From Candidatus Thorarchaeota archaeon (GTDB taxonomy: Archaea; Asgardarchaeota; Thorarchaeia; Thorarchaeales; Thorarchaeaceae): a stretch of 42,406 nt of DNA. The stretch covers positions 1 to 42,406 of the forward strand of contig JBHLQJ010000002.1 in the NCBI GenBank assembly GCA_048884945.1, given 5' to 3'. Under the pieces are notes generated by a model. It did not search any database. It worked only from the letters and a program-made list of their open reading frames with translations, and was not told where the DNA came from. Of this stretch, positions 1 through 41,742 are shown one piece after another (position 1 is the stretch's first letter; every line of letters starts with the position of its first letter). Made by a program: the position numbers and the translations under genes.

Positions 1-1
1 A

Positions 2-58: not shown

Positions 59-59
59 C

Positions 60-69
60 TTTTTTTTTT
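60..69 (+). terminator. oligo-T tract, candidate archaeal terminator
   Basis: Ten consecutive T immediately after the TAA at 56-58. Archaeal RNA polymerase terminates at oligo-T. Confidence 0.3.
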
Positions 70-141
70 CAAATACATGGTGTCTAGTTGTGCTTTCAAC
101 TTACAAATGCACCATGTAAATTTTCTCATTCTGTGTGGTGG

Positions 142-148
142 TTATATA
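142..148 (+). promoter_or_regulatory. candidate TATA box for the roadblock/GTPase operon
   Basis: TTATATA lies about 53 nt upstream of the TTG start at 201. A purine-rich SD-like GGAGCTGAGGA sits at 189-199. Confidence 0.3.
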
Positions 149-200
149 GTTACGATATGGATTCTACATTGAACCCAACCGTTGGTCCGGAGCTGAGGAC

Positions 201-2065: not shown

Positions 2066-2079
2066 CTGGAGGTTAATGA

Positions 2080-2661: not shown

Positions 2662-2781
2662 GCGCGGAACTCGTTGCATAGGAATTACCGAGCAAACCAT
2701 TTATACGACTAGATATGACTTTAATCGCAGTTCTAGGCTTGGAGAATATATGGTTCCCCAATATTATTTCTGAGGCTGTTG

Positions 2782-4464
2782 ATGTTGGATTCTATACAAC
2801 GAAAACCAAATTTTGTATTCATTACGGGTGGTGTTCTTTCTGGTATTGGAAAAGGAGTCACTACAGCTTCTATTGCAAAACTATTCCAATTTCGTGGGTT
2901 TGACATTCGAATAATTAAGATTGATCCGTATCTCAACATTGACCCTGGCACATTGAATCCTATCGAACATGGTGAGGTTTTTGTAACAGACCAAACTTGG
3001 AAGTTCCAACCAGTTGATAATTTTAAATTTAGAATATCTGAGATTGACTTGGATTTCGGGACTTATGAACGATTCACTGGATTGGAGGTTCATCCATCTC
3101 AGAACATCACGTCAGGACAGGTATACCTCTCAGTCATCCTTGAAGAGAGAAAAGGTAGTTTTCTTGGACACACAGTTCAAATCATCCCTCACATAACGGA
3201 CAGAATTAAACAAAGAATTTGGGAGGTAGTGAAAAAGCAACCAATACCGGATATTCTTCTTGTAGAAATTGGTGGTACTGTGGGCGACATTGAAGCAATG
3301 CCATTTCTTGAGGCTGTTAGACAACTTGTTCATGAGCTAGGTCGTGGTCGTACTGCTGTTGTACATGTCACCTTAGTACCCTATATCAAAACTGTAGGAG
3401 AGTTCAAGACTAAACCAACCCAGCACAGTGTTCGGACTCTTCAAAGTCTAGGTCTCCAGCCTGATGTCACCATTTGCAGAGCTGAGAGAAAACTCCCAGA
3501 TTCTGTGAAGGAAAAAATCGCTTTGTTCTGTAATGTTCCAAAAGAACGTGTCATTTCGAACCCAGATATTCCTGTAGTTTACCAACTTCCACTTTTATTT
3601 GAGGATGAAAATCTTGGAAATATACTTGTTGAATACTTTGGGATGGAATCAAGAAAGCCCGATATAGAATCTTGGTCTAAAATAATCCGTGCCTTTGACG
3701 AAGCATCTGAAACAGTAACAATTGCAATGCCCGGGAAATATACCACACTTGGCGACTCCTACAAGAGTATCAATCAAGCGCTAGCAGATGCTGCAGCTGC
3801 CTGTGGCGCTAAAGTTGAGATAAAATGGATTGAAACGGAGGAGCGGAGTACTGAAGAAGGTTTCACTAGTGATCTATCAGATGTAGATGGGGTGCTTCTA
3901 ACTCCCGGTTTCGGGGAACGTGGTGTTGAAGGTATGATTTGTGCTGCTGCAATCGCCTTGAAATCCAATATTCCTCTCTTGGGCATCTGCTATGGTGCTC
4001 AACTCTCTACGGTTGCATTTGCTAGAGTTGTTATGGGTTGGAAAGGAGCTCATACAACAGAAGTAGACATTGATAGTCTATATCCTGTTGTCGATTTGAT
4101 GGATGAACAGAAGCTTACAGAAGATAAGGGTGGTACAATGCGTCTTGGAAGTCATGATGTTTACATTATAGAAGGCACTATATTACACAAAATCTATGGC
4201 ACAGACAAGGTCCGTGAGCGATTCCGTCATAGGTATCATTTGATTGAACGTTATCTGACCAAGATGCGCGAAAAAGGCCTGAGGATATCAGCTTTTGACT
4301 CCACAAAGAAAATAATCAATGCAATTGAGCTTGCTAATCATCCTTTTTGGATTGGAGTACAATACCATCCAGAGTTCAGGTCTCGACCTGATAATCCTCA
4401 TCCTCTTTACTTGGGTCTAATAAGGGCCGCCATTGAATACAAAAAGCTGAGAGTGAAGAAATAG
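2782..4464 (+). CDS. pyrG: CTP synthase
   Basis: FITGGVLSGIGKG, EIGGTVGDIEAMPF, KTKPTQHSV, GATase LGICYGAQL and RFRHRYHL motifs. ATG at 2782 is preferred over the TTG at 2779. Confidence 0.95.
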   Translation: MLDSIQRKPNFVFITGGVLSGIGKGVTTASIAKLFQFRGFDIRIIKIDPYLNIDPGTLNPIEHGEVFVTDQTWKFQPVDNFKFRISEIDLDFGTYERFTGLEVHPSQNITSGQVYLSVILEERKGSFLGHTVQIIPHITDRIKQRIWEVVKKQPIPDILLVEIGGTVGDIEAMPFLEAVRQLVHELGRGRTAVVHVTLVPYIKTVGEFKTKPTQHSVRTLQSLGLQPDVTICRAERKLPDSVKEKIALFCNVPKERVISNPDIPVVYQLPLLFEDENLGNILVEYFGMESRKPDIESWSKIIRAFDEASETVTIAMPGKYTTLGDSYKSINQALADAAAACGAKVEIKWIETEERSTEEGFTSDLSDVDGVLLTPGFGERGVEGMICAAAIALKSNIPLLGICYGAQLSTVAFARVVMGWKGAHTTEVDIDSLYPVVDLMDEQKLTEDKGGTMRLGSHDVYIIEGTILHKIYGTDKVRERFRHRYHLIERYLTKMREKGLRISAFDSTKKIINAIELANHPFWIGVQYHPEFRSRPDNPHPLYLGLIRAAIEYKKLRVKK

Positions 4465-5627
4465 TGGAAAGAACTCTCGATAAACTACTATCAAGATTGG
4501 TTGAAGAAATTGAGCACATCGAGGTAACAAGAGAAGGATTTGGGGAAGTTCTCAGAAATATCAGAGACCAAATCGATTTGAGTAGATTTCCAAGAATCGC
4601 AATAAATACTATTGATAAACAGCTATATACAAAGATAGAGCCTACTAGTCTATCAGGTCTTCGAATAGCTGGTATAGATGGAGGTTTAGTCCGAAAACGC
4701 TTCAGGTCAATGGATTTAGTTTTAACAAGGGGTGTTGCGGTTGTATTTCAATTTGGTGCAGAAGAAGGTCCCACTGTTGATTTCTATCCTGATGCTTTTC
4801 CTGAACCAAAGATTAGTCCATTACTTCTGACATTATCTGCGATAGAGCTAGAACAGCTCGCCTCACTAGAACGGATTGCAGCAGAACTCAGAGTTGCTTT
4901 GTCAATTCTTGAGGAATACCATACAGATTTGATTCTTCTCGATGGATCGTTGTTTTATCACCCTCGAGACCGTCCCTCAGCTGGATCTATCGTTTATGAG
5001 AAGTTTCAAGAGATTCTATCATTGTATAAACAACTCTATCACAAAGCTCGGAAAAAAGGTACAACTCTAGTAGGTATAGTCAAAGACAGTAAATCAACAC
5101 GGGTCGCATCTATAATGGGGGAGATACTCCCACACATTGTTCGAAAACCAGCCATCTTTGAGATGATGCAAGGTGTTGATTATAGATGGCTACTCAAGAT
5201 ATCTAGAGACTGTGATTTACTTGATACATTCCTTGAACAAGGAGAGCGATCTTTTGTCTTCCGATACTCGTCAGAACTGTTTCATAATACAAACTCAATA
5301 AGCGACATTTCTGCGAACTGGGCATCTTCAATCTGGGTCACATATCTGAAAACAGCAAGAGATGATTTGCCAATAAGAGTAGAGTTCCTTTCAGCTGGAG
5401 ATGATGAAACAATCACTGAGAGATTAGACAAAGCATTGTCAGCAATACTTCCACTTTCATCACAGCATCCTGAATATGGTATTCCTACTCCAATTCTGGA
5501 AGCTGACACTCGTGCAAAAATTACTGCAAATGAAACTCGTTTAATTATTGACCGGCTAATGGCACTTTCTGGGCTTACTTACATGACCCTTGAAAAAAGA
5601 CGTTCAAGAAACCCGTTTGGAGGTTAA
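4464..5627 (+). CDS. nurA: NurA 5'-3' nuclease
   Basis: IAGIDGG and LILLDGSL NurA-type motifs, 387 aa. The GTG start overlaps the pyrG stop. It lies immediately upstream of herA. Confidence 0.75.
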   Translation: MERTLDKLLSRLVEEIEHIEVTREGFGEVLRNIRDQIDLSRFPRIAINTIDKQLYTKIEPTSLSGLRIAGIDGGLVRKRFRSMDLVLTRGVAVVFQFGAEEGPTVDFYPDAFPEPKISPLLLTLSAIELEQLASLERIAAELRVALSILEEYHTDLILLDGSLFYHPRDRPSAGSIVYEKFQEILSLYKQLYHKARKKGTTLVGIVKDSKSTRVASIMGEILPHIVRKPAIFEMMQGVDYRWLLKISRDCDLLDTFLEQGERSFVFRYSSELFHNTNSISDISANWASSIWVTYLKTARDDLPIRVEFLSAGDDETITERLDKALSAILPLSSQHPEYGIPTPILEADTRAKITANETRLIIDRLMALSGLTYMTLEKRRSRNPFGG

Positions 5628-29721: not shown

Positions 29722-31110
29722 ATGTCAAGTCAGAGCCAAGGTTTCACAAGCACGGTCTTGAAACTGCGATTCATGTTCCATGAGTACTACAAGTCCAACC
29801 CTGACTCTATTGACATTCCGGATAAAATCCACAATAGAGAGTTTGGTATTCAAAGTTGGGAATACAATTGGTATTGCCCTATGAGGAAAGGTCGTGACGA
29901 GGCTGGTCGGAATAAGGCAATAGGATGTGGACAGTCTGGGACATCATTCACAAACATCAAAATATGTCCAAATTGCGGATCTACTGACATCCAGACAACT
30001 ACATGGAAACGACATGTAGGTTATTTGAACCGTGATGAACTCGTCCGAGATTTGGTATCGGTAGCTCCTCACAGTGTCTATCATTCAGCGGCATTCTACA
30101 AGATTCCAGTCGCACGGCATATGAATGAAAAAGAATGGTTTGGAGCTGAGCTTGTCTTCGATATTGATGCAGATCATCTAGAATTACCATGTGCAAAAAA
30201 TCATGACGCATGGCGATGTAATGCTGAGAACTGTCATAAAACCGGAATTGGCACTCCGCCTGAGCGTTGTCCAGACTGTGATGGCACGAGTTTCAGTACA
30301 AGAAAGTGGGTATGTGAGAACTGTCTAGCCGAAGCTAAGAAATACACGAAGAAGCTCTATGATGAGTTCATCGTGACTGATTTTGGATTCAGTCCTGAAT
30401 CTATTCAACTTAATTACAGTGGTCATAGAGGATATCATATTCGTATTCGCGATCCCCGGGCTTTTACACTTGATTCGAATGGTCGTATTCAGATAGTACA
30501 CTACGTCATGGGTCTTGGTTTCAACACCGAGAAAGTCATTGTAAATCAAGGTGGAGTGGATAGAATACCAGACCGCGTCTTTCCAGGATGGGCTGGCAAA
30601 ATAGCTGATGCTATTGTAGATTTTGTACGAAACATAGAATCATACGATGGAACTGAGAGATGGGTCAAACCACTTAGAAAAGGAAAAGTCGCAGCCCTTG
30701 ATGGACTGCTAAGAACCCCTCCTATTTTGAATAAAGAAGCAAGAGATATTGGATTAAAGTCTTGGCAAGAAATCGCTGAGAAAGCAGCAGAGTTCTATGG
30801 TGGTGAGATAGACCGTCCGGTGACCCATGATGTTCACAGAGTTATTCGCTTAATTGGTAGTCTAAATGGAAAGACTGGATTTATGGTCAACAAGCTTACC
30901 AGAGATCAACTAGATGACTTCGATCCTTTTCGTGATGCAATTGTCTTTAATGATGGACAAATGAAGGTTAAATTTCTGCGCAAATCTCCTGGTGTCCCCC
31001 TTTTCAGAATTGGTGACGACACCTATGGTCCATATCATGGAGAATCCGTTGAATTACCAACAGCAGCAGCAGCATTTGTGTTATGCAAAGGAGTTGCTAT
31101 CATTGAGTGA
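29722..31110 (+). CDS. priS: DNA primase small (catalytic) subunit PriS with extra N-terminal zinc ribbon
   Basis: Catalytic LVFDIDADH, SGHRGYHIRI and RVIRLIGSLNGKTG motifs. Zn-knuckle C..H..C..CPDCDG. An additional CPMRKG..CGQSG..CPNCGS ribbon lies between the REFG and RH segments. Confidence 0.85.
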   Translation: MSSQSQGFTSTVLKLRFMFHEYYKSNPDSIDIPDKIHNREFGIQSWEYNWYCPMRKGRDEAGRNKAIGCGQSGTSFTNIKICPNCGSTDIQTTTWKRHVGYLNRDELVRDLVSVAPHSVYHSAAFYKIPVARHMNEKEWFGAELVFDIDADHLELPCAKNHDAWRCNAENCHKTGIGTPPERCPDCDGTSFSTRKWVCENCLAEAKKYTKKLYDEFIVTDFGFSPESIQLNYSGHRGYHIRIRDPRAFTLDSNGRIQIVHYVMGLGFNTEKVIVNQGGVDRIPDRVFPGWAGKIADAIVDFVRNIESYDGTERWVKPLRKGKVAALDGLLRTPPILNKEARDIGLKSWQEIAEKAAEFYGGEIDRPVTHDVHRVIRLIGSLNGKTGFMVNKLTRDQLDDFDPFRDAIVFNDGQMKVKFLRKSPGVPLFRIGDDTYGPYHGESVELPTAAAAFVLCKGVAIIE

Positions 31111-32233: not shown

Positions 32234-32352
32234 TTTCTTACGCTTAATATCATTGAACTACGCTATTCGTCGTTTCTGCAAACTTTTAATATGGGCTCTC
32301 AAATCGCTCACCCAACTGGCAAAATAGCCTTACACACAAATGGTGCACACCC

Positions 32353-32895
32353 ATGGCTGAAACAAAAGAACCGACTGAGTTCCCAGTCACGTTGATTGAC
32401 CCTATTGAAATGTCGAAACTTGACAGCAAATTCCGGGAAGAGATTCATAGCATGCCAAATGGCGAGGAGCTTTCTGCATGCTTTGCTTGTTCAACCTGCA
32501 CTGCGGCATGTCCCATTGCAAACATTTGGAAATACAAACCACATCAGTTAATCCGAATGATACTATTAGGTATGCGTGATGAAGTTCTCTCTTCTGATGA
32601 AATCTGGCTTTGTCTGACGTGTTTCCAGTGTCAAGAAAGGTGTCCCCAAAAAGTACGAGTAACTGACATTTTCTTTGACTGTAAAAACCTAGCTGCTGAA
32701 CAAGGAAAAGTTCCACCAAATATCGTCAACCTAGGCAGAGAACTGCTTGAGAAAGGCCAACTCTATACTGTCACAGCTGACTGGGAACGTGAAGACATGG
32801 GTCTAGAACCCGAAGTACCAGGTTTAGCAGTTGATGCTGTAAAAGAAATTCTAAAAGAAACCCGAACAAGCAAGCTTGTGGGTGGTGGTGAGTAG
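32353..32895 (+). CDS. hdrC: heterodisulfide reductase subunit C-like (2x[4Fe-4S])
   Basis: CFACSTCTAACP and CLTCFQCQERCP motifs. 180 aa. It directly precedes hdrB. Confidence 0.8.
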   Translation: MAETKEPTEFPVTLIDPIEMSKLDSKFREEIHSMPNGEELSACFACSTCTAACPIANIWKYKPHQLIRMILLGMRDEVLSSDEIWLCLTCFQCQERCPQKVRVTDIFFDCKNLAAEQGKVPPNIVNLGRELLEKGQLYTVTADWEREDMGLEPEVPGLAVDAVKEILKETRTSKLVGGGE

Positions 32896-32896
32896 G

Positions 32897-33763
32897 GTGC
32901 CGGTTTACAATTTATACATGGGCTGCAGTGTGCCAGCAAACTATCCAAATTACGAAACGGCAATGATCAAAGTCGCTACAGCCTTTGATATGCAATTGGA
33001 GTACATGGAAGGAGTCGCCTGCTGCGGAAGCCCCAATCTTCGTGCAATCGATTACATGGGATGGCTCACTGTAAATGCAAGGACATTGGCTATTGCTGAG
33101 AAAAACGGACACGACATCGTCACACCGTGCAATGGATGTTTTGGATCTCTCAAAGACACTTACCACTTTCTCAAGCATGATAATGATTATAGAAAGAAAG
33201 TCAATACCGCTCTGAAGAAGGAAGGTCTTGAATTCAAAGGCACAATAGTCCCTCGCCATTTTGTAGAGGCTCTCTATACAGACATTGGGATTGATGAAAT
33301 TAGGAAGAAGGTCACAAAACCCCTTGATGGTGTAGGAATTGCGATTCACTACGGTTGTCACGTTTTACGTCCAGCTGATGTGACTGAATTCAGACCAGAA
33401 TATCTAGACGAGTTAATCAAGGTCACTGGAGCATCGGTTGTAGAATATCCAATATGGAAACAATGTTGTGGTGCAACTATTCTTCCCGTCAACGAAAATC
33501 TAGGAATTAGACTGGCTCGTGACAAACTCAAATCGATGAAAGAATCCGGAGCTGAGTTCATTACTGTTGTCTGTCCAGCTTGTGGAAATCAATTGGATTT
33601 ACAACAGCTCGGTTTGAAAGAATCATATGGGGAAGAGTACAATCTACCAGTTCTTCTGTATCCCCAGATACTTGGTCTAGCATTGGGAATGGATGAGGAA
33701 GAGGTAGGACTTAGCATGAACAGAGTTCCTGCAGACCCAATTTTGAATCATTTGACCGGATGA
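32897..33763 (+). CDS. hdrB: heterodisulfide reductase subunit B-like (two CCG domains)
   Basis: YMGCSVP, VACCGSPN, KQCCGA and VCPACG motifs. GTG at 32897 follows GGTGGTGGTGAG and lies just after the hdrC stop. Confidence 0.85.
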   Translation: MPVYNLYMGCSVPANYPNYETAMIKVATAFDMQLEYMEGVACCGSPNLRAIDYMGWLTVNARTLAIAEKNGHDIVTPCNGCFGSLKDTYHFLKHDNDYRKKVNTALKKEGLEFKGTIVPRHFVEALYTDIGIDEIRKKVTKPLDGVGIAIHYGCHVLRPADVTEFRPEYLDELIKVTGASVVEYPIWKQCCGATILPVNENLGIRLARDKLKSMKESGAEFITVVCPACGNQLDLQQLGLKESYGEEYNLPVLLYPQILGLALGMDEEEVGLSMNRVPADPILNHLTG

Positions 33764-33774
33764 GGTGAAATAAA

Positions 33775-35025
33775 GTGACTAATCCGGTCCTTATCATTGG
33801 AGCCGGCGTTGCAGGCATGACTGCTGCAGTTGAGCTTGCAGACTCTGGGATTAAGACAATCCTTGTGGAACGACAGAGATCAGCAGGAGGTAACGCTTTG
33901 GTTCTTTACAAGGCATTTCCAACCGATGACTGTTTCTACTGCTTCGAGGGGAACCGCTGGCGTCCGGGAATCCGTAAATGCTTCTATAGGAGCGCGCTTA
34001 CAGATCAACCCAATATTGCTTTAAAGATGAATAGTGAAGTAGACGAAATCTCAGGCAGTCCTGGTAAATTTACTGTAAAACTGAACGTAGGTCCTGTGTA
34101 TGTCCATCCAAAGAAATGTACACTATGCGGACTTTGTATGGAAAAGTCTCAGGCTTTCTTTCTACTATCACCACAGTGCCAACCACAGGCAGTAATGTAT
34201 GACCCAACGAAAGCTGATGATGGTGCAAAACAGGCTGAAGATGAATGTCCAACAAAGGCAATCAATCTTAGTGCTCAACCAACAGAAGAAACAGTTCAAG
34301 TTTCAGACATTGTAATTGCAACTGGTTATCATGAGTTACAACCGACCAACATGGATGAATACTATTATGGAAAACATCCTAACATCATCACCCAACTAGA
34401 ACTGGCCAAGATTATCGATCCGATTGGAACCTCAAATGGGGCTCTGTTAAGACCCTCTGATGGAAAGCCCGCAAAACGAGTGATGATGGTACAGTGTGTT
34501 GGAAGCAGGGATGAGAATTACTATCCTTATTGTTCCAAAATTTGCTGTATCTTCGCTCTCAAACATGCAAATATACTCACACAGGAGAGAAACGATGTTC
34601 GAATAAGTGTAGTATACATGGATATCCGTACATATGACAGGTATGAACGATATTACCGCGAATCTCGAAATTCCGGAGTGGAGTTTATCAGAGGTAGAAT
34701 CACTCTCATTGAGCCACGAAAAGATGGTGCCTTAGATATAACAGTCTATGACTCACTCTTGAACAGATATCTCAAATTCCCTGTGGACATTTTTGTTCTC
34801 TCGTCAGCCCTCGAACCTCCTAAAGGGACTGACAAACTCATTGAAACACTTGGAATAAAGTCTGCAAGTGGATTTGTTGGAATTGCAGATCAAGCTTCAG
34901 AGAATGAAGTGGTGGTCGGTGACCATATCTATGCTTGTGGAACCGCACTTGGTCCTGCAGAAGTTCCTGAAAGTGTGACTCAGGCACGTGCAGTAGTGTC
35001 TAAGATTCTCCAGAGTAGGAAGTGA
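33775..35025 (+). CDS. hdrA: short HdrA-like FAD flavoprotein
   Basis: VLIIGAGVAGMTAAVELADSG dinucleotide fold, FPTDDCFYC and MVQCVGSRDENYYPYCSKICC (HdrA-type Cys cluster). 416 aa, lacking C-terminal ferredoxin domains. GTG start after GAGGTGA. Confidence 0.7.
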   Translation: MTNPVLIIGAGVAGMTAAVELADSGIKTILVERQRSAGGNALVLYKAFPTDDCFYCFEGNRWRPGIRKCFYRSALTDQPNIALKMNSEVDEISGSPGKFTVKLNVGPVYVHPKKCTLCGLCMEKSQAFFLLSPQCQPQAVMYDPTKADDGAKQAEDECPTKAINLSAQPTEETVQVSDIVIATGYHELQPTNMDEYYYGKHPNIITQLELAKIIDPIGTSNGALLRPSDGKPAKRVMMVQCVGSRDENYYPYCSKICCIFALKHANILTQERNDVRISVVYMDIRTYDRYERYYRESRNSGVEFIRGRITLIEPRKDGALDITVYDSLLNRYLKFPVDIFVLSSALEPPKGTDKLIETLGIKSASGFVGIADQASENEVVVGDHIYACGTALGPAEVPESVTQARAVVSKILQSRK

Positions 35026-35034
35026 AACTAACAG

Positions 35035-37200
35035 ATGGATAACAACAAATCAGCGGTACTCATCTGCACCTGTGGTAAACAGCTCCAGTTGGGATTTGAC
35101 TTCCTAGAAACTCAGATCAAAAAGATGAACTTAGCTTCTTCTGTGGATGTTCATGATCTTGTCTGTCAAGAAGAAGGTCTGGTCAAAATTGCAGAACTCC
35201 TAAAGACAAGTGATGGAAGACTCGTGATTGCTGCATGCTCCAGCCAGAAAATTCAACCACGAATTGATCATTATCTTGACTCAAAGGGTATAAACAGCTC
35301 CCAGATTCAGTATACGAACATTCGAGAGCACTCAGCATGGGTGCATAAAGACTTGGATGAAGCAAACAAAAAATCTGTAGATATGATTAGCGGCACGCTT
35401 GCAAGGTCTGCAAATTCCACAAAGCGCGTATTAGAACAAAAACAAATTTCTACGCACGTCACGGTAATAGGAGGTGGAATTGCAGGTGTTGAATCTGCGC
35501 TTAGCCTTTCAAACCTTGGTTACAAGGTCTCTCTAATAGAACTCACCGATGAGCTAGGAGGACATGTCAAGAGTCTTCCTGTGGTTGCTCCCACAGGTAA
35601 GTCAGGCAAGGAGATACTTAGTGGTCGATTAGAAGCACTTCAAAGTGATGATAATATTCAGATAATGATTAAGACAAAGGTCAGGTACGTTACAGGCGAG
35701 ATGGGTAACTTTGTAGTTCACTATTCATCTGAGAAAGACGAAGAGAAGACTTTGGAAACCGCTGCTATAGTATTAGCTAACGGATTCAAAGAATTCAAAC
35801 CAACATCTATGGAAGAGTATCATTACGGGAAGAATCCAAATGTCATCACCCAGTTTGAGCTTTCATGTATGCTCTCTGAAGGCGAACTTGTTCGACCATC
35901 TGATGGAAATCCGGTCAAAGATGTAGTAATGGTGCAGTGTGTTGGTAGTAGGGACGAGAACTACAAGAAAGACTGCAGTAAGTTATGCTGCACATTTGCT
36001 ATTGACAACTCTCTTGAAATCCTCAAGAGGATACCCGAAGCCAATGTCAGGATAGTCTACATGGACATCAGAGTCCCGTTCGAAAACGAGATGATATACA
36101 AAGAGTCTCGTGAGAAGGGCATTGACTATATTCGAGGCCGAATTAGTATGACCTGGGAAAAAGATGACTCTACATATGTGCGAATCTATGATTCTTTGCT
36201 TGACAAGTATCTTGAAACAACTGTGGATCTATTGGTCCTCTCGTCAGCAGTACTCCCCCCTGATGGGATTTCTGAGCTTTCCGAAACCTTAGGATACGCC
36301 GTCGAAGAGGATGGCCATGTGAAGGAACTCTATGGCAAACTAAGAAGGAATGAAACCCGTCGTCGTGGCGTTGTTGCGGTAGGAGGAGTCACACGTCCTC
36401 AATTTGTGTTTGAAGCAGTGACAGATGCCCAAGCTGGTGCGCTCATCATTCATAATGAACTCCAGAGCGGAGAGATTCAGTCTATTGCACGAGGTGCAGT
36501 TCTAGATGTGGATGATTGTGTTGGCTGCAGTCTCTGTGCTCAGCAGTGTCCACGCGGAGTTCCACTAATGATTGAACAGACAGAAGTTGAAGAAGCTGAC
36601 GAGGAACAAAAAATACTGTTCAAGGCTTCAATTGACACTCTAAATTGTCACTCCTGTGGAGTATGTCAGAGCTTGTGTCCTTCAGGTGCTACTCAGCTTA
36701 ATTTTCTATCTAACGAGCAACTCTGGTCTGAAATTGATGCCACGCTAGAAGGTGCAGGTTCTGAATATCCAATCACACTTTGCTTCTACTGCGAAGAGTG
36801 TTCTGTGTCTACAATTGACATTGTTGGTACCAGAAGAATGGAATACCCAGCTAGCACACGCCTAATTCCAGTTCCTTGTGCAGGTAGAATAAGCATCATC
36901 GACATCCTCAAGGCATTTGAGAATGGTGCCAGCACCGTAATGATAGCAGCTTGTGAGAAAGACCGATGTCATATAGGTGGAACTGGTAACGAAATTGCTC
37001 AGGTACAGGTAGATGTTGCCCAAGACATTTTGAAAGCTATTGGATGGGAGGGCAAACGTGTTGGTATGTTTAGGATGTTCAGCGCAGAGCCTGAACGCTT
37101 CACGAATGCAGTCAATGAAATGGTGAAACGTGCTAAGGAGCTAGGCCCCACCCCGGTTCATGAAGGCACTGCAGGGAAGTGGATGGAGGTGACTGAATGA
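35035..37200 (+). CDS. hdrA: HdrA fused to a C-terminal MvhD-like domain
   Basis: N-terminal Cys domain (LICTCG), VIGGGIAGVESAL, MVQCVGSRDENYKKDCSKLCC, and ferredoxin motifs CVGCSLCAQQCP and CHSCGVCQSLCP. The MvhD-like tail is LCFYCEEC...VPCAGRI...MIAACEKDRCH. Confidence 0.8.
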   Translation: MDNNKSAVLICTCGKQLQLGFDFLETQIKKMNLASSVDVHDLVCQEEGLVKIAELLKTSDGRLVIAACSSQKIQPRIDHYLDSKGINSSQIQYTNIREHSAWVHKDLDEANKKSVDMISGTLARSANSTKRVLEQKQISTHVTVIGGGIAGVESALSLSNLGYKVSLIELTDELGGHVKSLPVVAPTGKSGKEILSGRLEALQSDDNIQIMIKTKVRYVTGEMGNFVVHYSSEKDEEKTLETAAIVLANGFKEFKPTSMEEYHYGKNPNVITQFELSCMLSEGELVRPSDGNPVKDVVMVQCVGSRDENYKKDCSKLCCTFAIDNSLEILKRIPEANVRIVYMDIRVPFENEMIYKESREKGIDYIRGRISMTWEKDDSTYVRIYDSLLDKYLETTVDLLVLSSAVLPPDGISELSETLGYAVEEDGHVKELYGKLRRNETRRRGVVAVGGVTRPQFVFEAVTDAQAGALIIHNELQSGEIQSIARGAVLDVDDCVGCSLCAQQCPRGVPLMIEQTEVEEADEEQKILFKASIDTLNCHSCGVCQSLCPSGATQLNFLSNEQLWSEIDATLEGAGSEYPITLCFYCEECSVSTIDIVGTRRMEYPASTRLIPVPCAGRISIIDILKAFENGASTVMIAACEKDRCHIGGTGNEIAQVQVDVAQDILKAIGWEGKRVGMFRMFSAEPERFTNAVNEMVKRAKELGPTPVHEGTAGKWMEVTE

Positions 37201-39461
37201 GTCAACTAACATCAGAGAAAGTAATTGCTCCTAAAAGACAGCGCATGCTGGACATGATTCTGGCTCTTGGTGGACTCAAAGAAGAGGCGACAATTCCACT
37301 CAGTAAGGTCAAGGAAGAGATTGACAATCTGAAGAAAGAATTGGCACCATTGACCGACGCCATCCTTGCATTTCCCGACTCTTATTATGAGAAATTCTTG
37401 AATACAATTGAGAAACGAAATACTGTTTCTGAGATACACGATCGGGGAATTCTCAAAAAAGCCATCTCGGATCTTGATATAGTATCATCAAAAGCCGAAT
37501 CCAAATCCCTTGAAGGACTAAAAGAGTTGCTCACAATTGCTCTAAGTAGAATGGCTGAGGTTGAAGAAACACAGGGCCCTTCTATCGAGATAGATATGGC
37601 TACGAACCTTTCCAAACTCGCTGACTTGGTATCAGAAATAGAATCAATCACAGAAGGGTTTGAGAAGAAAGCAGAATCAGAAGCAAAGTCCGCACAGGCT
37701 GAGCTTGTGTCCTTGGTCGAAAATCTCAATGCAGCAAAATCAATGGCTGAAAATGACCCTGAAACCACTCTAGATGAGCTCCAAACCATTGGTTCTAAAA
37801 CAAGGTATGGCCCTGGACTAAGAGCTATCGCTCAAGTCAAACGAGGAAAGCGAGAGGGGCGAATTGACGACTCTCGGTTCCACGCACTCGTTATAGAAAA
37901 CATGCTCACTGAAGCAAATCGCGGGATGATAATGTTCATTCTTGGAAAAATGGGTTCAAAGACGGTCACTCAGATAGGAGAGCTCATGCAGACCACTCCC
38001 CAAACAATACAGAACGCTATTGTTACCATGATTCAGAGAGGTGAAGTTGAGATGGTCGGTCTTGATGGAAGCGCTCCCGTATTCTCCAAGGTTCTCACCG
38101 AAATACCCAACTCGACTCTGGCCATGAAAAGAATCGTACAACAGGTTCGTGGAATGGTCAAGTCACTTGAGCATAATCTGGTTGACAGTGCAAACACATC
38201 ACTTGAAAAATTACAAACATTACTAGAACGACTGCAAATACTGGGAACTTACGAAGAGAGTGAGCTTTCAGAACCAATGAACAAGCTACGAGAGCTTGTT
38301 GATAATACCACTCAAGCAGTTCTCACCACCCAGACAACTGATGATGCTAAAAACCTACGACTTCTAGTTTCAGCAGGTCTTGAGGCTTTTGCACGTTTTC
38401 GTCTGAAAATCGCCTTGGAGAAGGGTCCAAATCTCGTGTCTGGAACAAATGTCTACGGAGAAAAACTCAATCCTGAAGTCTACCAGACTATGATGGACTC
38501 TTATCTTGAGAATGAGCTTGAAAGAGGGACAATCCTAATTCTGATAAGAGAACTAGGCGCCCTCACAGCACATGACCTTGCTGAGAGAACAAATATTCCG
38601 CAGGACAGGATTCTCAGGCATCTGCTACGAATGAAACGTGATGAGCTTCTCACCATAGCTGGTGAGAGCCATGGCTATGTACTCTATGATGTACCTAGAA
38701 CACCATCAGAAGCTGAAATCACCATTCAAACAACCTGCTCCCTTGCTCTACAACTCTCTGAAGCCACGATAGAGTTACAGAGAATTTTGAGCGAATTGAA
38801 AGCGTCTGATATTGGGAAGCTAGCTAACTCTCTAGAAGTCTTTTCAAAGGCTCGCGATAAACTGGCAACAGTTCGTGTGAGTGGCGCTGTGATTGATGAA
38901 ACCACATTGAACGAAGTCGAGGACAAAATACGGTCAGCCCTCTTGCTTACTTATCGAACTCGCGCAAAGATACCCAGCACAAGGCCAAAGGTCTCGATTG
39001 AGGACCTAGCAGATGTTGATGTACCATCAGTCCTTGATGAGTATAGAAACCAGATGGGTTATGCGCCTTTGCTCGGATTTGGAACAATTGAATGGGAGCA
39101 ATCAAGGTGTCTCGGCTGCAAATCTTGTGAGATTGCATGTCCCGAGGATGCGATTGAGTTAGAACCTCGAATCGAGATTTCCAAGTTTTTTGAAATCTCT
39201 GATGAAGCCCTCTCTCAATTACCATCCAATCGGTCCATTTTGTACAAGACTGTGCAAAACCTTGCGAAGACAAAACCCTCAAAAGAAATTCTCCTCGCGA
39301 ACGATGCACCAGGATTTGGATCAATTGAAGTGGATCTCTGGCTTTGTGTTGCCTGTCGTACCTGTGTCAGGAGATGTCCAGGACCTGAAGGTGGAGCTTT
39401 AGAACTAGAGTTAAAGTGGAACCTGCCAGAAGTTGTAAGACACATAACATCAACCTCATAG
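37197..39461 (+). CDS. unrecognised 754-aa protein: helical repeats, two winged-helix-like modules and a split C-terminal 2x[4Fe-4S] domain
   Basis: ATG overlaps the hdrA::mvhD stop (ATGA) after GGAGGTGA. wHTH-like segments are MIMFILGKMGSKTVTQIGELMQTTPQTIQNAIVTMIQRGEVEMVG and ILILIRELGALTAHDLAERTNIPQDRILRHLLRMKRDELL. Fe-S motifs are CLGCKSCEIACP and CVACRTCVRRCP. Confidence 0.7.
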   Translation: MSQLTSEKVIAPKRQRMLDMILALGGLKEEATIPLSKVKEEIDNLKKELAPLTDAILAFPDSYYEKFLNTIEKRNTVSEIHDRGILKKAISDLDIVSSKAESKSLEGLKELLTIALSRMAEVEETQGPSIEIDMATNLSKLADLVSEIESITEGFEKKAESEAKSAQAELVSLVENLNAAKSMAENDPETTLDELQTIGSKTRYGPGLRAIAQVKRGKREGRIDDSRFHALVIENMLTEANRGMIMFILGKMGSKTVTQIGELMQTTPQTIQNAIVTMIQRGEVEMVGLDGSAPVFSKVLTEIPNSTLAMKRIVQQVRGMVKSLEHNLVDSANTSLEKLQTLLERLQILGTYEESELSEPMNKLRELVDNTTQAVLTTQTTDDAKNLRLLVSAGLEAFARFRLKIALEKGPNLVSGTNVYGEKLNPEVYQTMMDSYLENELERGTILILIRELGALTAHDLAERTNIPQDRILRHLLRMKRDELLTIAGESHGYVLYDVPRTPSEAEITIQTTCSLALQLSEATIELQRILSELKASDIGKLANSLEVFSKARDKLATVRVSGAVIDETTLNEVEDKIRSALLLTYRTRAKIPSTRPKVSIEDLADVDVPSVLDEYRNQMGYAPLLGFGTIEWEQSRCLGCKSCEIACPEDAIELEPRIEISKFFEISDEALSQLPSNRSILYKTVQNLAKTKPSKEILLANDAPGFGSIEVDLWLCVACRTCVRRCPGPEGGALELELKWNLPEVVRHITSTS

Positions 39462-39493
39462 CTTGACCATTGAATCACTCCATTGCCCTTTAG

Positions 39494-39513
39494 CAATTGA
39501 CTTATACAATTGA
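39494..39513 (+). promoter_or_regulatory. candidate promoter/operator of the acyl-CoA dehydrogenase gene
   Basis: Two CAATTGA motifs (39494-39500, 39507-39513) bracket a TATA-like CTTATAC about 45 nt upstream of the ATG at 39552. Confidence 0.25.
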
Positions 39514-39551
39514 GAAGATGTCAGAAACTGCAAATCCTTTGAGGGAGCACA

Positions 39552-40751
39552 ATGGTTGACTTCAGACTGACACATAACCAACAGGAGCTACAGAATAGAG
39601 CTAGAAAGTTTGCACAAGAATATATGATTCCCTATGCGCATTACTATGACAAAACCGGAGAATTTCCACGTCCAATAATTCAGAAATGCTGGGAGGAAGG
39701 ACTCATGAATTTGTCCATCCCAAAGGAGTATGGAGGTCCCGGCTTGGGCTCAATCGAACAATGTATCACAGTGGAAGAAATGGCGGCTGGGTGCGCAGGA
39801 ATGACCACTAGCATTTATGTAAATACATTAGGTGCTGAACCAATACTTGTAGCTGGGACGAATGAACAAAAGGAGAAGTATCTACGTCCACTTACTGAAG
39901 ACCTCAAATTCGTCAGTTTTGCATGTTCCGAACCAGGCATGGGTTCAGATGTTGCTGGAATACAGACTCGGGTAAAGAAAGAGGGAAGTAACTATGTGCT
40001 CAATGGTTCAAAGTTTTGGATAACAAATGCGCCTCATGCAGATTATTTCACAGTCTTTGCAAGCCTTGATCCAAGCCAGCGGCATAAAGCTCTTTGCGCT
40101 TTTATTGTAGATGCAGATACTCCAGGGGTCAAAACAGGTCGTCCTGTTGAAAAGATGGGGCATAGAGCATCTACTACCTCTTCTGTCATGTTTCGTGACG
40201 CCAAAGTGCCTGAGGAAAACATCTTGGGCAGTGAGGGGAAAGGCTTTGGAATCGCTATGAAGACTTTCGCTATGACTCGACCATCGATTGCCGCCTTTGC
40301 AACTGGCTTGGCACGAGCTGCTATGGAATATGCAAGGGACTATGTCAACAAACGAGATGTGTTTACTCAAAAACTACGAGAATTTGAAGTGACTCAGTTC
40401 AAATTAGCAGAAATGTACATGAAAATAGAGGCTTCAAGAGCACTATACTTGAAGGCTGCATGGACAACAGATAATGTTGGAGATGCCACGGTCCCTGCAA
40501 GTGTGGCAAAAGCATACGCCACTGATGCAGCCATGGAAATAGCAAGTGAGGCTCTTCAAATCCATGGCGGATATGGATATATTGACCAATATCCGCTCGA
40601 GAAGCTCTTCAGAGATGCGAAACTCTACCAGATTTATGAGGGGACCAGCGAGGTACAAAGACTCATTCTTGGTCGTCATGTCCTAAGTGGATATGAACCT
40701 GCCATGGATAAGATACCAAAGTGGTATAATGAAAAACCTCCAGATTTCTAG
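39552..40751 (+). CDS. acyl-CoA dehydrogenase (short/medium-chain type)
   Basis: ACSEPGMGSD, FWITNA, QIHGGYGY and YQIYEGTSEVQRLI (catalytic Glu region) motifs. 399 aa. GAGGGAG SD. Confidence 0.9.
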   Translation: MVDFRLTHNQQELQNRARKFAQEYMIPYAHYYDKTGEFPRPIIQKCWEEGLMNLSIPKEYGGPGLGSIEQCITVEEMAAGCAGMTTSIYVNTLGAEPILVAGTNEQKEKYLRPLTEDLKFVSFACSEPGMGSDVAGIQTRVKKEGSNYVLNGSKFWITNAPHADYFTVFASLDPSQRHKALCAFIVDADTPGVKTGRPVEKMGHRASTTSSVMFRDAKVPEENILGSEGKGFGIAMKTFAMTRPSIAAFATGLARAAMEYARDYVNKRDVFTQKLREFEVTQFKLAEMYMKIEASRALYLKAAWTTDNVGDATVPASVAKAYATDAAMEIASEALQIHGGYGYIDQYPLEKLFRDAKLYQIYEGTSEVQRLILGRHVLSGYEPAMDKIPKWYNEKPPDF

Positions 40752-40771
40752 GATAATTGGGAGATTCTGCT

Positions 40772-41146
40772 ATGATTGTTAAGAAACTAAATGATCTCAA
40801 ACAAATTGTTGCACTTGATGACACAATAATACGAGAGATACTCAATCCTAAGCATACAAAAGACACACTACATCTTGGATACAGTCTGGCACACGCAACT
40901 CTCCCGCCAAAGAAAGTTTCACTCCCACATCGGTTCAAGACAGCCTCAGAGGTCTATTACATCCTCAACGGAAATGGTCTCATGCATATTGACACCGAAA
41001 CGGAAAGGGTAGGACCTGGTGATACTATCTATATCCCACCAATGGCAGTTCAATCTATCGAAAATATTGGAAATACAAATCTGGAGTTCCTGTGTATCGT
41101 CTATCCTGAGTGGCAACCTGATGCTGAGGAACTTGTTCGCTCTTAA
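40772..41146 (+). CDS. cupin-domain protein
   Basis: HRFKTASEVYYILNGNGLMHID...VGPGDTIYIPPMAVQSIENIG is a two-motif cupin pattern. ATG at 40772 follows GGGAG. Confidence 0.7.
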   Translation: MIVKKLNDLKQIVALDDTIIREILNPKHTKDTLHLGYSLAHATLPPKKVSLPHRFKTASEVYYILNGNGLMHIDTETERVGPGDTIYIPPMAVQSIENIGNTNLEFLCIVYPEWQPDAEELVRS

Positions 41147-41265: not shown

Positions 41266-41742
41266 TCAACCATTTGAAGTATGAGCTCTCCACTGATTCT
41301 CTATCCACTGTTCCAATCCAACTTTTTCTATCGCCTTCAAGTTTTCAATGGTCTTCCACTTAATTATACCGGGCTTGCTCTTGAGATTCGAACACGGGAA
41401 ACTTGCACATTCACTACATAATGAGAAACCCCTTTCGAAGCAACATTTTCTGATATCACACCTTTCCTTCTCTTCTTTCGAATAATCAGGGATTTCAGCT
41501 TTGCATCCTGAACAAATCTTTGATTCTGCTAGTATTTGCAGCCCTCGCGAAAAGTTCTCGCCATCAACACCCTCCACTTGAAGTTGCTTCACGAACCCGC
41601 CATACTCTTGGAACATGTCGAGAGCAGCTTGTGCAGTCTTTCTTATTTTTCCTGAATGCCAATCACAAGTGTGACAATATGAACCGCAGAACGAAATGTA
41701 TCTCCTCTTCTCTTCCTCGTACCTCACCCACTGAGTCACCAT
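41266..41742 (-). CDS. Cys-rich DUF3795-like protein
   Basis: CGSYCHTCDW...CSGCKAE...CDIRKCCFERGFSLCSECASFPCSNL. The Cys spacing resembles DUF3795. Confidence 0.5.
   Translation of the reverse strand: MVTQWVRYEEEKRRYISFCGSYCHTCDWHSGKIRKTAQAALDMFQEYGGFVKQLQVEGVDGENFSRGLQILAESKICSGCKAEIPDYSKEEKERCDIRKCCFERGFSLCSECASFPCSNLKSKPGIIKWKTIENLKAIEKVGLEQWIENQWRAHTSNG

Follow-up and report, generated by a model that had tools for sequence, protein, structure and literature searches.

The gene that we designate X, in a 42,406-nucleotide stretch of a Candidatus Thorarchaeota contig (the window), most likely encodes an undescribed Fe-S subunit of an Asgard Hdr-type energy complex rather than a gene regulator. 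More specifically, and with a probability of about 0.7, X is a non-catalytic Fe-S structural subunit of an Asgard-specific flavin-based electron-bifurcating complex, formed together with HdrA-core, HdrA'::MvhD, HdrB and HdrC.

Gene order and translational coupling

The genes and signals of the hdr region in the window are the following:

32276-32292, + strand: BRE/TATA-like element CTGCAAACTTTTAATAT ahead of hdrC, conserved in an alignment of 48 upstream regions
32353-33763, + strand: hdrC (32353-32895) and hdrB (32876-33763), with Pfam Fer4_8 and two CCG matches
33775-35025, + strand: HdrA-core, 416 aa, a TrxR-like FAD domain with a single-cluster inserted ferredoxin
35035-37200, + strand: hdrA'::mvhD, 721 aa, with the MvhD/FlpD domain at nt 36778-37146 (Pfam FlpD, 3e-33)
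37185-37200, + strand: SD sequence GGAGGTGA (37185-37192) and ATGA start/stop overlap with hdrA'::mvhD (37197-37200)
37197-39461, + strand: X, a 754-aa Hdr-associated winged-helix/ferredoxin protein, stop codon included (ORF list, translation)

The BRE/TATA-like element is the probable operon promoter. The products of hdrC and hdrB match the NCBIfam CoB_CoM_SS_B/C models and the 721-aa HdrA'::MvhD matches HdrA2 (9e-136), in all cases under the cut-offs. As described in the first-pass annotation, the ATG of X (37197-37199) lies behind the SD sequence and overlaps the TGA (37198-37200) of the preceding ORF, and X is made in one translational unit with HdrA'::MvhD.

X directly follows an MvhD-ending hdrA gene in every locus; of 63 loci, 59 show a 4-nt overlap between the two genes and two more a 1-nt overlap, so that they are translationally coupled in 61/63. 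The surrounding gene order is hdrCB-A-A'::mvhD-X in Thorarchaeota (Thor-type) and A-A'::mvhD-X-hdrCB in the five Loki/Hel loci, where X is also coupled to hdrC, its stop overlapping or adjoining that gene (-4 to -15 nt). The link outlasts this rearrangement at 19-25% protein identity; the MvhD-ending gene is the invariant upstream partner of X.

The X family is small, about 250 clusters of full-length homologues, and the homologue search placed it in Asgard MAGs only. Identity to the window protein is 49-93% for Thor-type and 19-25% for Loki/Hel-type members; both winged-helix (WH) modules and 8/8 cysteines are kept in homologues as low as 19% identity, which indicates that these features are more than a product of chance. 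The architecture had not been recognised from the sequence, and indeed no curated family, solved structure or paper was found to describe it.

Domain layout and ferredoxin domain

An AF2 model of X, built on a 40-sequence alignment (A4), has a mean pLDDT of 76.7 and a pTM of just 0.39, and for the latter reason it does not define the placement of the ferredoxin relative to the scaffold. The model is predominantly helical, in agreement with the earlier description, and it contains two 3-helix/2-strand WH folds (aa 225-299 and 426-498), with a set of three long helices after each. The protein is organised as follows:

37218-37298, + strand: conserved N-terminal motif, aa 8-34, 'APKRxRMLDM..L..GL+EE' (A2 and A4 alignments)
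37299-37796, + strand: variable acidic long-helix (coiled-coil-like) region, aa 35-200 (AF2)
37797-38096, + strand: WH module 1 (WH1), aa 201-300, with a basic 'RAIAQVKRGKREGRI' segment, a long helix and a wHTH (Pfam, AF2, hhalign)
38109-38330, + strand: helical bundle A, aa 305-378, three long helices (AF2)
38340-38696, + strand: WH module 2 (WH2), aa 382-500, with an 'FRLK..EKG' helix, an 'NVYGEKL' loop (38448-38468) and a wHTH (hhalign, BLASTP)
38709-38969, + strand: helical bundle B, aa 505-591 (AF2, pLDDT 77-92)
38970-39074, + strand: low-confidence linker, aa 592-626, with a conserved 'P..EY' segment before the invariant GFG (AF2, A4)
39075-39458, + strand: 2x[4Fe-4S] ferredoxin domain, aa 627-754 (Pfam Fer4_7 and others)
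39075-39083, + strand: invariant GFG of the ferredoxin
39108-39143, + strand: Cys motif 1, C638-x2-C641-x2-C644-x3-C648-P
39144-39344, + strand: 67-aa helical insert, with an invariant L675-P676 inside the window's 'LPSNR'
39345-39380, + strand: Cys motif 2, C717-x2-C720-x2-C723-x3-C727-P

The N-terminal motif is a candidate docking peptide: K13 and R14 are invariant in a 13-sequence alignment (A2) and at least 90% conserved in A4, and the motif, modelled as a low-confidence helix (pLDDT <60), is kept in the variant of X with an NfnB insert described below. The region that follows (aa 35-200; AF2 helices at aa 35-124, 134-183 and 188-202) has the lowest conservation and carries a net charge of -15 in the window protein, while the linker before the ferredoxin falls below pLDDT 50 at aa 595-624.

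The proposed internal duplication is well supported for the WH modules (hhalign 98.3%, E 2e-14, 85 columns, as obtained with a diverse alignment; a shallow one gave a weak signal, E 3e-4) and is marginal for the bundles (E 6.5e-4). The two leucine-rich helices reported earlier are present, at aa 335-350 and 524-538, but their positions are not equivalent: of the three helices that follow each module, the one behind WH1 falls in the second and the one behind WH2 in the first. The best Foldseek matches of X are eukaryotic and archaeal multi-WH scaffold proteins, namely Pol III RPC62/C82 (7d58_O, E 5.9e-4, prob 0.96), UFL1-DDRGK1 and PCI subunits, in which extended WH strings are interleaved with helices as in X; however, the TM score is ~0.1 and the rmsd ~30 Å, and Pfam HTH_9 (RPC82 HTH) matches WH2 of two Hel/Loki members only at a sub-threshold E of ~0.015. 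The likeness is architectural only, and common descent is not supported by Foldseek or Pfam.

The C-terminal domain of X, with two [4Fe-4S] clusters, is of clostridial type and resembles those of polyferredoxins. The dicluster Pfam match covers aa 631-728 and includes the two CxxCxxCxxxCP motifs with a long linker that had been read from the sequence (68 residues between C648 and C717), and W741/P744 and a helix lie at its C-terminus. Conservation within X is highest in this domain: the 8 cysteines, whose conservation the first-pass annotation had proposed to check, are invariant in the 40 sequences of A4, together with GFG and L675-P676. The profile is closest to the polyferredoxins FwdF (3e-22) and MvhB (1e-19), although scores for the NCBIfam VhuB and FwdF models are far under cut-off. 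Among solved proteins, MvhB and FwdF (FmdF) are thus nearest in sequence to this domain; in the Mvh-Hdr-Fmd supercomplexes of methanogens they connect Hdr electrically with partner enzymes, and their CxxCxxCxxxCP [4Fe-4S] units follow a 'G-x-I' strand as in X. Unlike them, X has one dicluster domain rather than 6-8 repeats, its two motifs are separated by a conserved helical insert of 67 aa, and ~625 aa of the protein are scaffold free of Fe-S clusters. In canonical X the two clusters are the sole recognisable substrate or cofactor site.

Winged-helix modules and the NfnB-insert variant

As judged from sequence comparison, both WH modules of X belong to the family that forms the C-terminal extension of "long MvhD" in other archaea. 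Against a profile of this ~110-aa module built from non-X sequences (A6), WH2 aligns as a bona fide MvhD-associated module (hhalign 99.7%, E 2.5e-25, 119 columns) and WH1 as a divergent copy (98.3%, E 2e-14); WH2 also shares 32% identity over 108 aa with an MvhD-WH fusion (P0150, BLASTP). Among 80 metagenomic loci carrying the module, it is fused to the MvhD C-terminus in 76 and directly follows MvhD in one, and HdrA-like genes occur in 79; a representative locus (L094) has the order hdrB-HdrAcore-HdrA'-[MvhD-WH]-... Thus, the hdrA-cluster context and the order HdrA', MvhD, WH are common to X and to long MvhD, and gene boundaries alone differ. The extension of long MvhD is uncurated and no solved structure covers it. 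In X, by contrast, two copies of the module sit on a polypeptide of their own, with a helical bundle after each copy, and the protein further comprises a ~200-aa N-terminal coiled region and the C-terminal two-cluster ferredoxin. The sole structurally described MvhD-like adaptor with a wHTH, likened to X by description, is BamF of class II benzoyl-CoA reductase, whose wHTH makes protein-protein contacts within an HdrA-type complex, on the side of the electron-input module.

In one Thorarchaeota clade, aa ~205-417 of X (WH1 and bundle A) are replaced by an NfnB/GltD-type NADPH-FAD-FeS module (best match 4ylf_B, 1.6e-96; Pfam Fer4_20 and Pyr_redox_2), which points to NAD(P)H as the electron donor in that clade. 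The clade is monophyletic (7/7 terminals) and its X genes occupy the same operon slot as canonical X. Insertion of GltD into HdrA itself is known (PMC12054007); in type III HdrA the domain is inserted in HdrA, whereas in the variant it is inserted in X. MvhAG hydrogenase, FdhAB and FlxABC are electron-input modules that reach HdrA via MvhD, and X is likewise encoded beside MvhD, but its canonical form is devoid of a catalytic or substrate-binding domain.

Direction of electron flow and role of X

The adjacency to MvhD and the NfnB fusion favour entry of electrons into the complex through X over exit from it. It is unlikely that X is instead a low-potential exit, whose tethered ferredoxin would take an electron from the "inserted ferredoxin" branch of HdrA and pass it to a partner enzyme on the WH/bundle scaffold; in Thorarchaeota, such a partner could be the neighbouring medium-chain acyl-CoA dehydrogenase (ACAD), acting as an enoyl-CoA reductase. 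This reading draws on the presence of a single-cluster inserted ferredoxin in HdrA-core and of none in HdrA'::MvhD, which shortens the canonical two-cluster exit and leaves a gap that X could fill, and on MvhB, among the closest ferredoxin relatives of X, to which one study assigns the exit role in methanogen Hdr-Fmd supercomplexes (PMC13580544). ACAD does follow X in all Thor-type loci with downstream sequence (n=64, including duplicates and the window; gaps 60-163 nt). However, the connection is weaker than had been implied: ACAD is missing from the Loki/Hel loci and, where present, is preceded by a conserved BRE/TATA-like element of its own, and adjacency in Thor MAGs is weak evidence, because the unrelated upstream genes for PCNA, primase and GINS are equally syntenic. 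Moreover, the enzyme is MCAD-like, a class normally using ETF, and both the position of X beside MvhD and the fusion to NfnB, of NADPH-input type, indicate the entry side.

Slightly less probable still is the redox-sensing transcription factor put forward in the first-pass annotation, in which two ArsR/MarR-like WHs would bind the hdr and/or ACAD promoters and the clusters would signal how oxidised or reduced the cell or the Hdr complex is. Fe-S wHTH regulators exist, e.g., Rrf2/IscR. In WH1 of X, a MarR-type stretch (aa 242-285) exceeds the whole-protein cut-off of Pfam MarR_2 (30.8 bits versus 27), WH2 is ArsR/SmtB-like, with an ArsR/TrmB-type stretch (aa 446-489) that scores under Pfam cut-offs, and the closest solved relatives of the module profile are DNA-binding ArsR-family proteins (PH1932 and HlyU, at about 1e-6). 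X shares the HTH-core fold and the '..LRH..xL+..GLV'-like recognition helix with ArsR/SmtB and MarR regulators, and this similarity is compatible with DNA binding; just past the conserved TATA-like box of hdrC lies a short dyad, CCAACTGG. Nevertheless, no long conserved operator-like palindrome was found upstream of hdrC (32234-32352) or ACAD (39462-39551), Thor X proteins are acidic (pI ~5), their wings are neutral or negative, and the charge of the recognition helix is not conserved. X also differs from these regulators in lacking MarR-type dimerisation helices and metal-sensing sites, in having an extra N-terminal 'FRLR..GNVYGEK' element, and in being always linked to MvhD, not to a divergent promoter. 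It lies inside an operon, coupled to one neighbour in Thor and to two in Loki/Hel; its type of WH module is covalently joined to the Fe-S adaptor MvhD in most of the 80 metagenomic loci, and WH1 is dispensable, an NADPH oxidoreductase taking its place in one clade. Its cluster motifs are those of classical low-potential electron-transfer ferredoxins, nearest to polyferredoxins, and its length, 754 aa of which about 400 form scaffold helices, is atypical for a regulator.

A role for X in the assembly or maturation of Hdr, or as a dimerisation strut of purely structural function, with clusters off the catalytic electron path, is very improbable, since, although about 600 aa are scaffold-like helices and WH domains and the best Foldseek matches are assembly or scaffold proteins, conservation peaks in the ferredoxin, whose cysteines and flanking motifs are invariant at 19% overall identity, and the NfnB-module fusion implies electron flow through X.

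The scaffold or electron-entry role, also considered in the first-pass annotation, is therefore favoured by the coupling, the MvhD-fused WH homologues, the NfnB swap and the polyferredoxin-like ferredoxin. As an Fe-S subunit of the Hdr complex, X would use its WH modules to bind the surface of MvhD/HdrA instead of DNA, as reported for the BamF wHTH, and its N-terminal peptide perhaps docks there too; its coiled N-terminal region and bundles A and B would serve as a spacer or as a scaffold for dimerisation. The [4Fe-4S] pair may act as a short wire that links an external redox partner to the [2Fe-2S] cluster of MvhD, the port of the bifurcating HdrA flavin. One Thorarchaeota clade would have captured this partner by fusion, as the NfnB/GltD-type NADPH-FAD-2x[4Fe-4S] module; for canonical X, including that of the window, we conjecture that it may be a separate protein or a ferredoxin.

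Gene X and the hdr operon

The first-pass annotation described a 754-aa protein (here X) encoded directly after hdrA'::mvhD, the gene of a 721-aa HdrA'–MvhD fusion; the ORF is real, runs on the forward strand from 37197 to 39461 and translates into 754 aa. Both elements of the start context that had been pointed out are present, namely an SD, GGAGGTGA at 37185-37192, 4 nt before the ATG of X, and the overlap of this ATG (37197-37199) with the TGA (37198-37200) of the preceding ORF. The neighbouring genes named there (hdrC, hdrB, HdrA core, HdrA'::MvhD and ACAD) were borne out as well, and the region is organized as follows.

Features of the hdr operon region (window positions)
32276-32292, conserved BRE/TATA-like box CTGCAAACTTTTAATAT, upstream of hdrC (48-63 Thor loci)
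32311-32319, short 4+4 dyad CCAACTGG, after the hdrC box
32353-32895, hdrC
32876-33763, hdrB
33775-35025, HdrA core, 416 aa
35035-37200, HdrA'::MvhD fusion, 721 aa
37197-39461, forward strand, X, 754 aa
39492-39507, conserved BRE/TATA-like box AGCAAyTGACTTATAC (AGCAATTGACTTATAC), upstream of ACAD (48-63 Thor loci)
39552-40751, acyl-CoA dehydrogenase (ACAD), downstream of X
40757-41146, forward strand, cupin, downstream of ACAD
41266-41742, reverse strand, DUF3795 protein, downstream of ACAD

The hdrC and ACAD boxes have a GCAA(A)C...TTATA core in common, and the cupin gene is mostly next after ACAD in Thor loci, at a varying distance. HdrA is split over two adjoining genes (33775-37200), a TrxR-like core of 416 aa and the 721-aa HdrA'. 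The core carries a single-cluster inserted ferredoxin, with ligands C115/118/121/158, which is absent from HdrA'; the latter has an N-terminal 4-Cys cluster, a 2-cluster C-terminal ferredoxin and the fused MvhD. The presence of two adjoining hdrA genes suggests a heterodimeric HdrA/HdrA'. Sec read-through from HdrA-core into HdrA'::MvhD was also considered, the two being in frame, 9 nt apart and separated by a TGA stop; it was rejected, since an in-frame TAA follows two codons past the TGA (TGA-AAC-TAA-CAG) and the frames differ at other loci.

Among 5.8 billion clustered proteins, 247 matches to X were found, the best 120 of which are full length (~754 aa), at least 69% identical to X and derived from Thorarchaeota, 'Sifarchaeia' or Promethearchaeota MAGs; the fullest name among these 120 is '4Fe-4S dicluster domain-containing protein'. 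With aa 1-625 as query, thus without the ferredoxin, exhaustive HMMER scanning through 1.84 billion representatives identified 48 proteins at E ≤ 1e-3, including nine full-length relatives of 734-747 aa and 19-24% identity, with Helarchaeota or Lokiarchaeota as source labels. These distant members, which represent the Loki/Hel branch of the family beside the Thor-type one, retain both winged-helix (WH) regions, all eight Cys and the long insert of the ferredoxin; in a further protein search with a mixed 13-sequence alignment (A2), the Thor clade filled the results and nothing new was found. In a 40-sequence alignment (A4) covering both branches, invariant positions include the 8 Cys, G627-F628-G629, immediately preceding the ferredoxin, L675-P676, located in the insert, G706, G708, W741 and P744, and likewise E408-K409, G454 and Y494; the ferredoxin is the most conserved region of X. 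When each GTDB species was scanned through one genome, 62 X loci were obtained, ~59 from Thor-type MAGs and 3 from Helarchaeota. Judging from the conservation down to 19-24% identity and from this distribution, the X family is real, strongly constrained and, going by the depositors' labels, restricted to Asgard MAGs. One Hel-type homolog of 730 aa (P0203) is deposited as bacterial 'Candidatus Deferrimicrobium sp.'; this record is probably a misbinned Asgard contig.

Analysis of all fetched X loci by tblastn and ORF prediction placed X immediately after the MvhD-ending hdrA gene wherever upstream DNA is present. The start of X overlaps the stop of this gene by 4 nt (ATGA) at 59 of 63 loci and by 1 nt at two, while at two others a gap of 11-16 nt is found; X is co-operonic and translationally coupled with hdrA, mvhD, hdrB and hdrC, and the arrangement is conserved. 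The gene order is hdrC-hdrB-hdrA(core)-hdrA'::mvhD-X-ACAD-(cupin) in Thor-type loci and hdrA(core)-hdrA'::mvhD-X-hdrC-hdrB in five Loki/Hel loci, where the end of X and the beginning of hdrC overlap or adjoin (-4 to -15 nt) and ACAD is absent. As these two orders indicate, the link between X and MvhD outlasts operon rearrangement and ~80% sequence divergence, whereas the link with ACAD does not. Replication genes (two PCNA-like, primase small subunit and GINS51-like) are found directly upstream of the hdr operon, at 29722-31110 and further upstream in the window and at 1-4800 of loci L001 and L003. The PCNA, primase and GINS genes are syntenic across Thor MAGs although functionally unrelated to hdr; gene order in Thor is thus conserved even between unrelated genes. 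Since ACAD also has its own promoter-like box, is of the medium-chain type (1e-118 to MCAD) and is missing in Loki/Hel, its adjacency to X is weak evidence, and the tie between the two drawn in the first-pass annotation loses weight.

An apparent exception, a closed Thor chromosome (CP070658.1) with only MvhD and no hdrCBA upstream of X, was rejected, the seemingly stand-alone MvhD resulting from a 100-nt run of N (5452-5551) inside hdrA'::mvhD; a Ras-family small GTPase gene lies close by (3879-4487, minus strand). At Loki/Hel loci, two giant tandem-HdrA-like proteins (about 1000-1170 aa), one of them with fused FlpD, are encoded right upstream of the X unit; the upstream parts (L005:1-6302, L006:1-5904, L068-L070) also contain a stand-alone MvhD followed by a 93-aa ORF, resulting in a large hdr supercluster. 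This 93-aa ORF was tried as a WH module and rejected, as it has no similarity.

Domain composition and predicted fold of X

The architecture of X, which had not been recognised from the sequence, matches no curated family. Searches of NCBIfam and of all PDB chains with the X sequence recognised nothing beyond a generic ferredoxin motif and, below threshold, an ArsR-like segment; Pfam identified a MarR-type wHTH stretch (aa 242-285), an ArsR/TrmB-type stretch (aa 446-489) and a dicluster ferredoxin (aa 631-728). A first AF2 model, built on a shallow alignment (sequences at least 69% identical) and unusable in its C-terminal third, was superseded by a model from the diverse 40-sequence alignment (mean pLDDT 76.7, pTM 0.39); the domain folds predicted by the latter are credible, but not their mutual arrangement.

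Domains of X
aa 8-34, conserved, low-confidence N-terminal peptide/helix; K13-R14 invariant in A2 and at least 90% conserved in A4
aa 35-200, variable acidic region with long helices
aa 201-300, WH module 1 (WH1)
aa 305-378, three-helix bundle A
aa 382-500, WH module 2 (WH2)
aa 505-591, three-helix bundle B
aa 592-626, disordered linker
aa 627-754, ferredoxin-fold domain, its two cluster motifs separated by a helical excursion (661-689)

The internal duplication claimed earlier holds for the WH regions, which with the diverse alignment match each other with 98.3% probability (E 2e-14, 85 columns; weak, E 3e-4, with the shallow one), but not firmly for the bundles, whose match is marginal (E 6.5e-4). 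Foldseek comparison of the model with the PDB produced one match below 1e-3, RPC62 (7d58_O), a four-WH subunit of Pol III, followed by other multi-WH scaffolds (UFL1-DDRGK1, PCI subunits) and by single MarR/ArsR regulators; global TM-scores are ~0.1 (0.08-0.13), and no characterised family with this architecture emerged. These matches to a predicted model are taken to show no more than that extended winged helices follow one another in a string. Among the top structures, 7d58_O and 2xv4 point weakly to winged helices of the extended RPC82/RPC62 type. The corresponding Pfam profile (HTH_9) remained below its cut-off (E ~0.015) and was seen in two Hel/Loki members only, within WH2 (P0128 aa 442-469, P0139 aa 435-472); neither this nor a TM-score of ~0.1 is significant for homology, and the relationship to RPC62/C82 was kept as an architectural resemblance only.

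In the C-terminal region, Fer4_7 scores 36.9 bits (cut-off 27), identifying a dicluster 2x[4Fe-4S] domain. The two CxxCxxCxxxCP motifs of the first-pass annotation are both complete (C638-C648 and C717-C727) and separated by 68 residues, close to the ~65 aa claimed; ferredoxin strands are modelled at 627-633, 653-656, 709-712 and 735-742, and the eight ligand Cys would accommodate two predicted [4Fe-4S] clusters. The nearest matches of the ferredoxin profile are FwdF (3e-22) and MvhB (1e-19), both polyferredoxins of methanogens; they match motif by motif, and the insert between the motifs of X was found in none of these proteins. X is however not one of these polyferredoxins: it scores 22.5 versus 600 bits with the MvhB/VhuB model (NF045874) and 22.3 versus 375 bits with that of FwdF (NF042909), and it contains one dicluster unit, whereas MvhB and FwdF carry 6-8 in tandem.

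A winged-helix module associated with MvhD

The weak tail of the exhaustive HMMER scan (E 1e-5 to 1e-3, X aa ~380-500) consisted at first sight of small wHTH proteins; several of them (P0150, P0156, P0160, P0167) have an N-terminal MvhD/FlpD domain according to Pfam, and BLASTP of X aa 395-499 with P0150 gives 32% identity over 108 aa, spanning the family-signature loop NVYGEKL. An alignment of eighteen non-X sequences (A6) defines a module of ~110 aa, comprising a 'FRLR..GK' helix, a 'GNVYGEK' loop, an 'E[FY]xR' helix and a wHTH with a 'VLRH..xLR' recognition helix; its HTH core finds its nearest PDB matches among ArsR/SmtB-type regulators (about 1e-6). In profile-profile comparison with A6, WH2 matches with 99.7% probability (E 2.5e-25, 119 columns; NVYGEKL at aa 418-424) and WH1, in which the NVYGEK loop is absent, with 98.3% (E 2e-14, 74 columns). 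By this homology, the WH modules of X are members of an MvhD-associated module family.

A metagenome scan with a closer subset of A6 (A7) as query confirmed 143 module stretches, and 80 loci were fetched. In 76 of them the module makes up the C-terminal half of an MvhD protein 250-290 aa long; in one, MvhD is the directly upstream ORF, and three are cut by the contig end. HdrA-like genes are present in 79 of the 80 loci, and both X and, apart from the three cut loci, the non-X members are encoded fused to, or right after, MvhD/FlpD in an hdrA cluster. Long MvhD with a C-terminal ArsR-like WH module of ~110 aa is a widespread class that does not correspond to a Pfam family; no solved chain in the PDB includes the extension, the deposited MvhD chains being all of 129-141 aa. 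The long MvhD genes (L074-L153, e.g. L094:3581-4357) carry source annotations as 'F420-reducing hydrogenase delta subunit / ArsR family regulator', and one record is labelled Bathyarchaeota. On the 861-kb contig of locus L094 the order is hdrB - HdrA-core(443) - HdrA'(544) - [MvhD-WH](258) - tandem HdrA(1006) - MvhD(143) - hdrC: the domain order HdrA' -> MvhD -> WH is the same as in the window, but the gene boundaries are different. From the module homology and this common order, X looks like the split-off WH extension of a long MvhD, duplicated and supplemented with the bundles, the N-terminal coiled region and a ferredoxin cap.

In the literature searched for MvhD in combination with a winged helix, the sole link was a cryo-EM preprint on class II benzoyl-CoA reductase, which describes BamF, an MvhD-like adaptor, as '>100 aa longer' than MvhD, with a wHTH 'that interfaces with BamI', the electron-input arm. 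Apart from this remark on BamF, the literature searched describes neither X nor the MvhD-associated WH module.

In a group of Thor loci (L055, L057-L061, L007/L008; e.g. L055:6001-8919) the exact slot of X is occupied by proteins of 972-974 aa (P0123 and relatives), whose genes overlap the MvhD-ending gene by 4 nt and are followed by ACAD. They retain X aa 1 to ~204 and aa 418-754, while aa ~205-417 (WH1, bundle A and helix 382-414) are exchanged for an NfnB/GltD-type module (Pfam Fer4_20 and Pyr_redox_2; 1.6e-96 to Thermotoga maritima NfnB, 4ylf_B, and 2e-119 to 9bov_A). The seven variants group as a single clade within the Thor sequences when the C-terminal 337 aa common to all are placed in a neighbour-joining tree, and on this tree the module swap is derived and retained. 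Since its central module is exchangeable for an NADPH-FAD-2x[4Fe-4S] input module, X very probably belongs to an electron path. For HdrA itself, an inserted GltD domain is on record under the name 'type III HdrA' (PMC12054007).

X as a putative subunit of the Hdr complex

On the available sequence evidence, X is probably a subunit of the Hdr complex (probability roughly 0.7). Two readings had been proposed for it, and one of them, a scaffold or electron-entry subunit, is favoured by the fusion of the homologous WH module to MvhD at other loci, by the translational coupling and by the module swap. X would dock through its WH modules on the surface of MvhD/HdrA', its bundles and coiled N-terminal region would act as spacer or dimerisation elements, and the two [4Fe-4S] clusters would link the complex to a partner. 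In Mvh-Hdr, the [2Fe-2S] cluster of MvhD is the entry route to the bifurcating FAD. A placement at the entry, with the X clusters feeding this [2Fe-2S] cluster, is favoured by the position of X next to MvhD and by the fused NfnB/GltD module, a kind of device typically used for NADPH input. Alternatively, X could complete the low-potential exit, as the polyferredoxin MvhB does in methanogen supercomplexes, given that the inserted ferredoxin of HdrA-core has one cluster and HdrA'::MvhD lacks any.

The other reading, a redox-sensing DNA-binding regulator, is improbable: the ArsR/MarR ancestry of the WH core would suit it, but the X gene lies inside the operon and is translationally coupled, the same WH module is covalently joined to the Fe-S adaptor in 76 of 80 loci, an enzyme module can stand in for WH1, and the ferredoxin, the best-conserved region, is of the electron-transfer (polyferredoxin) type. 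Charge points in the same direction, Thor X proteins having a pI of 4.8-5.4; the WH1 wing ranges from -4 to +3 over the alignment, being mostly neutral or negative (-1 to -4 in all Thor-type members), the recognition helix from -3 to +4 across the family, and the sole consistently basic segment is aa 201-224. Upstream of hdrC (32234-32352) and ACAD (39462-39551), the operator search identified BRE/TATA-like boxes, SDs and, beside the hdrC TATA-like box, a short 4+4 dyad that would speak for a regulator, but no long conserved palindrome. MarR_2 reaches 30.8 bits on the whole of X (cut-off 27), with no single stretch passing alone, and MarR 24.5 against 24.6, with no match in most Loki/Hel members; the wing and helix charges and the promoters do not appear to conform to a MarR-type regulator, with its homodimer helices, basic wing and recognition helix and palindromic DNA. 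Nor is X an ArsR/SmtB metalloregulator (NF033788, 25.1 bits against a cut-off of 55).

As for X as an Hdr subunit, a more tentative proposal is that it founds a new class of Hdr adaptors, in which WH modules of ArsR ancestry would serve, at the MvhD port, as a platform for modular docking, with electron-donor modules plugged onto it. If true, NfnB-like NADPH modules or separate enzymes would plug onto this platform, and X would set the physiological donor of the non-methanogenic Asgard Hdr complexes. In a bolder extension, the tandem extended-WH scaffold is possibly related in evolution to eukaryotic multi-WH scaffolds such as RPC62/C82.

Hdr complexes with exchangeable accessory modules are known; new within this kind are a putative ferredoxin subunit scaffolded by WH domains and the recurrence of a WH module as appendage of MvhD, and it appears that a fold otherwise used to bind DNA has been put to new use in the construction of electron-bifurcating complexes. 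The module definition may also aid the reading of BamF-type adaptors and of the many proteins annotated as 'MvhD / ArsR family regulator'. Among Asgard archaea, to which eukaryotes are more closely related than to any other prokaryotes and which are not methanogens, HdrABC-MvhD genes occur widely, and no Mvh hydrogenase is encoded in the hdr operon of the window; this raises the question of what supplies the Asgard Hdr complexes with electrons or draws them off. A conserved Fe-S protein always found at the MvhD port offers a handle on their donor or acceptor, of relevance to models of energy metabolism and syntrophy, and the NADPH-oxidoreductase module of one clade makes NAD(P)H a concrete candidate donor.
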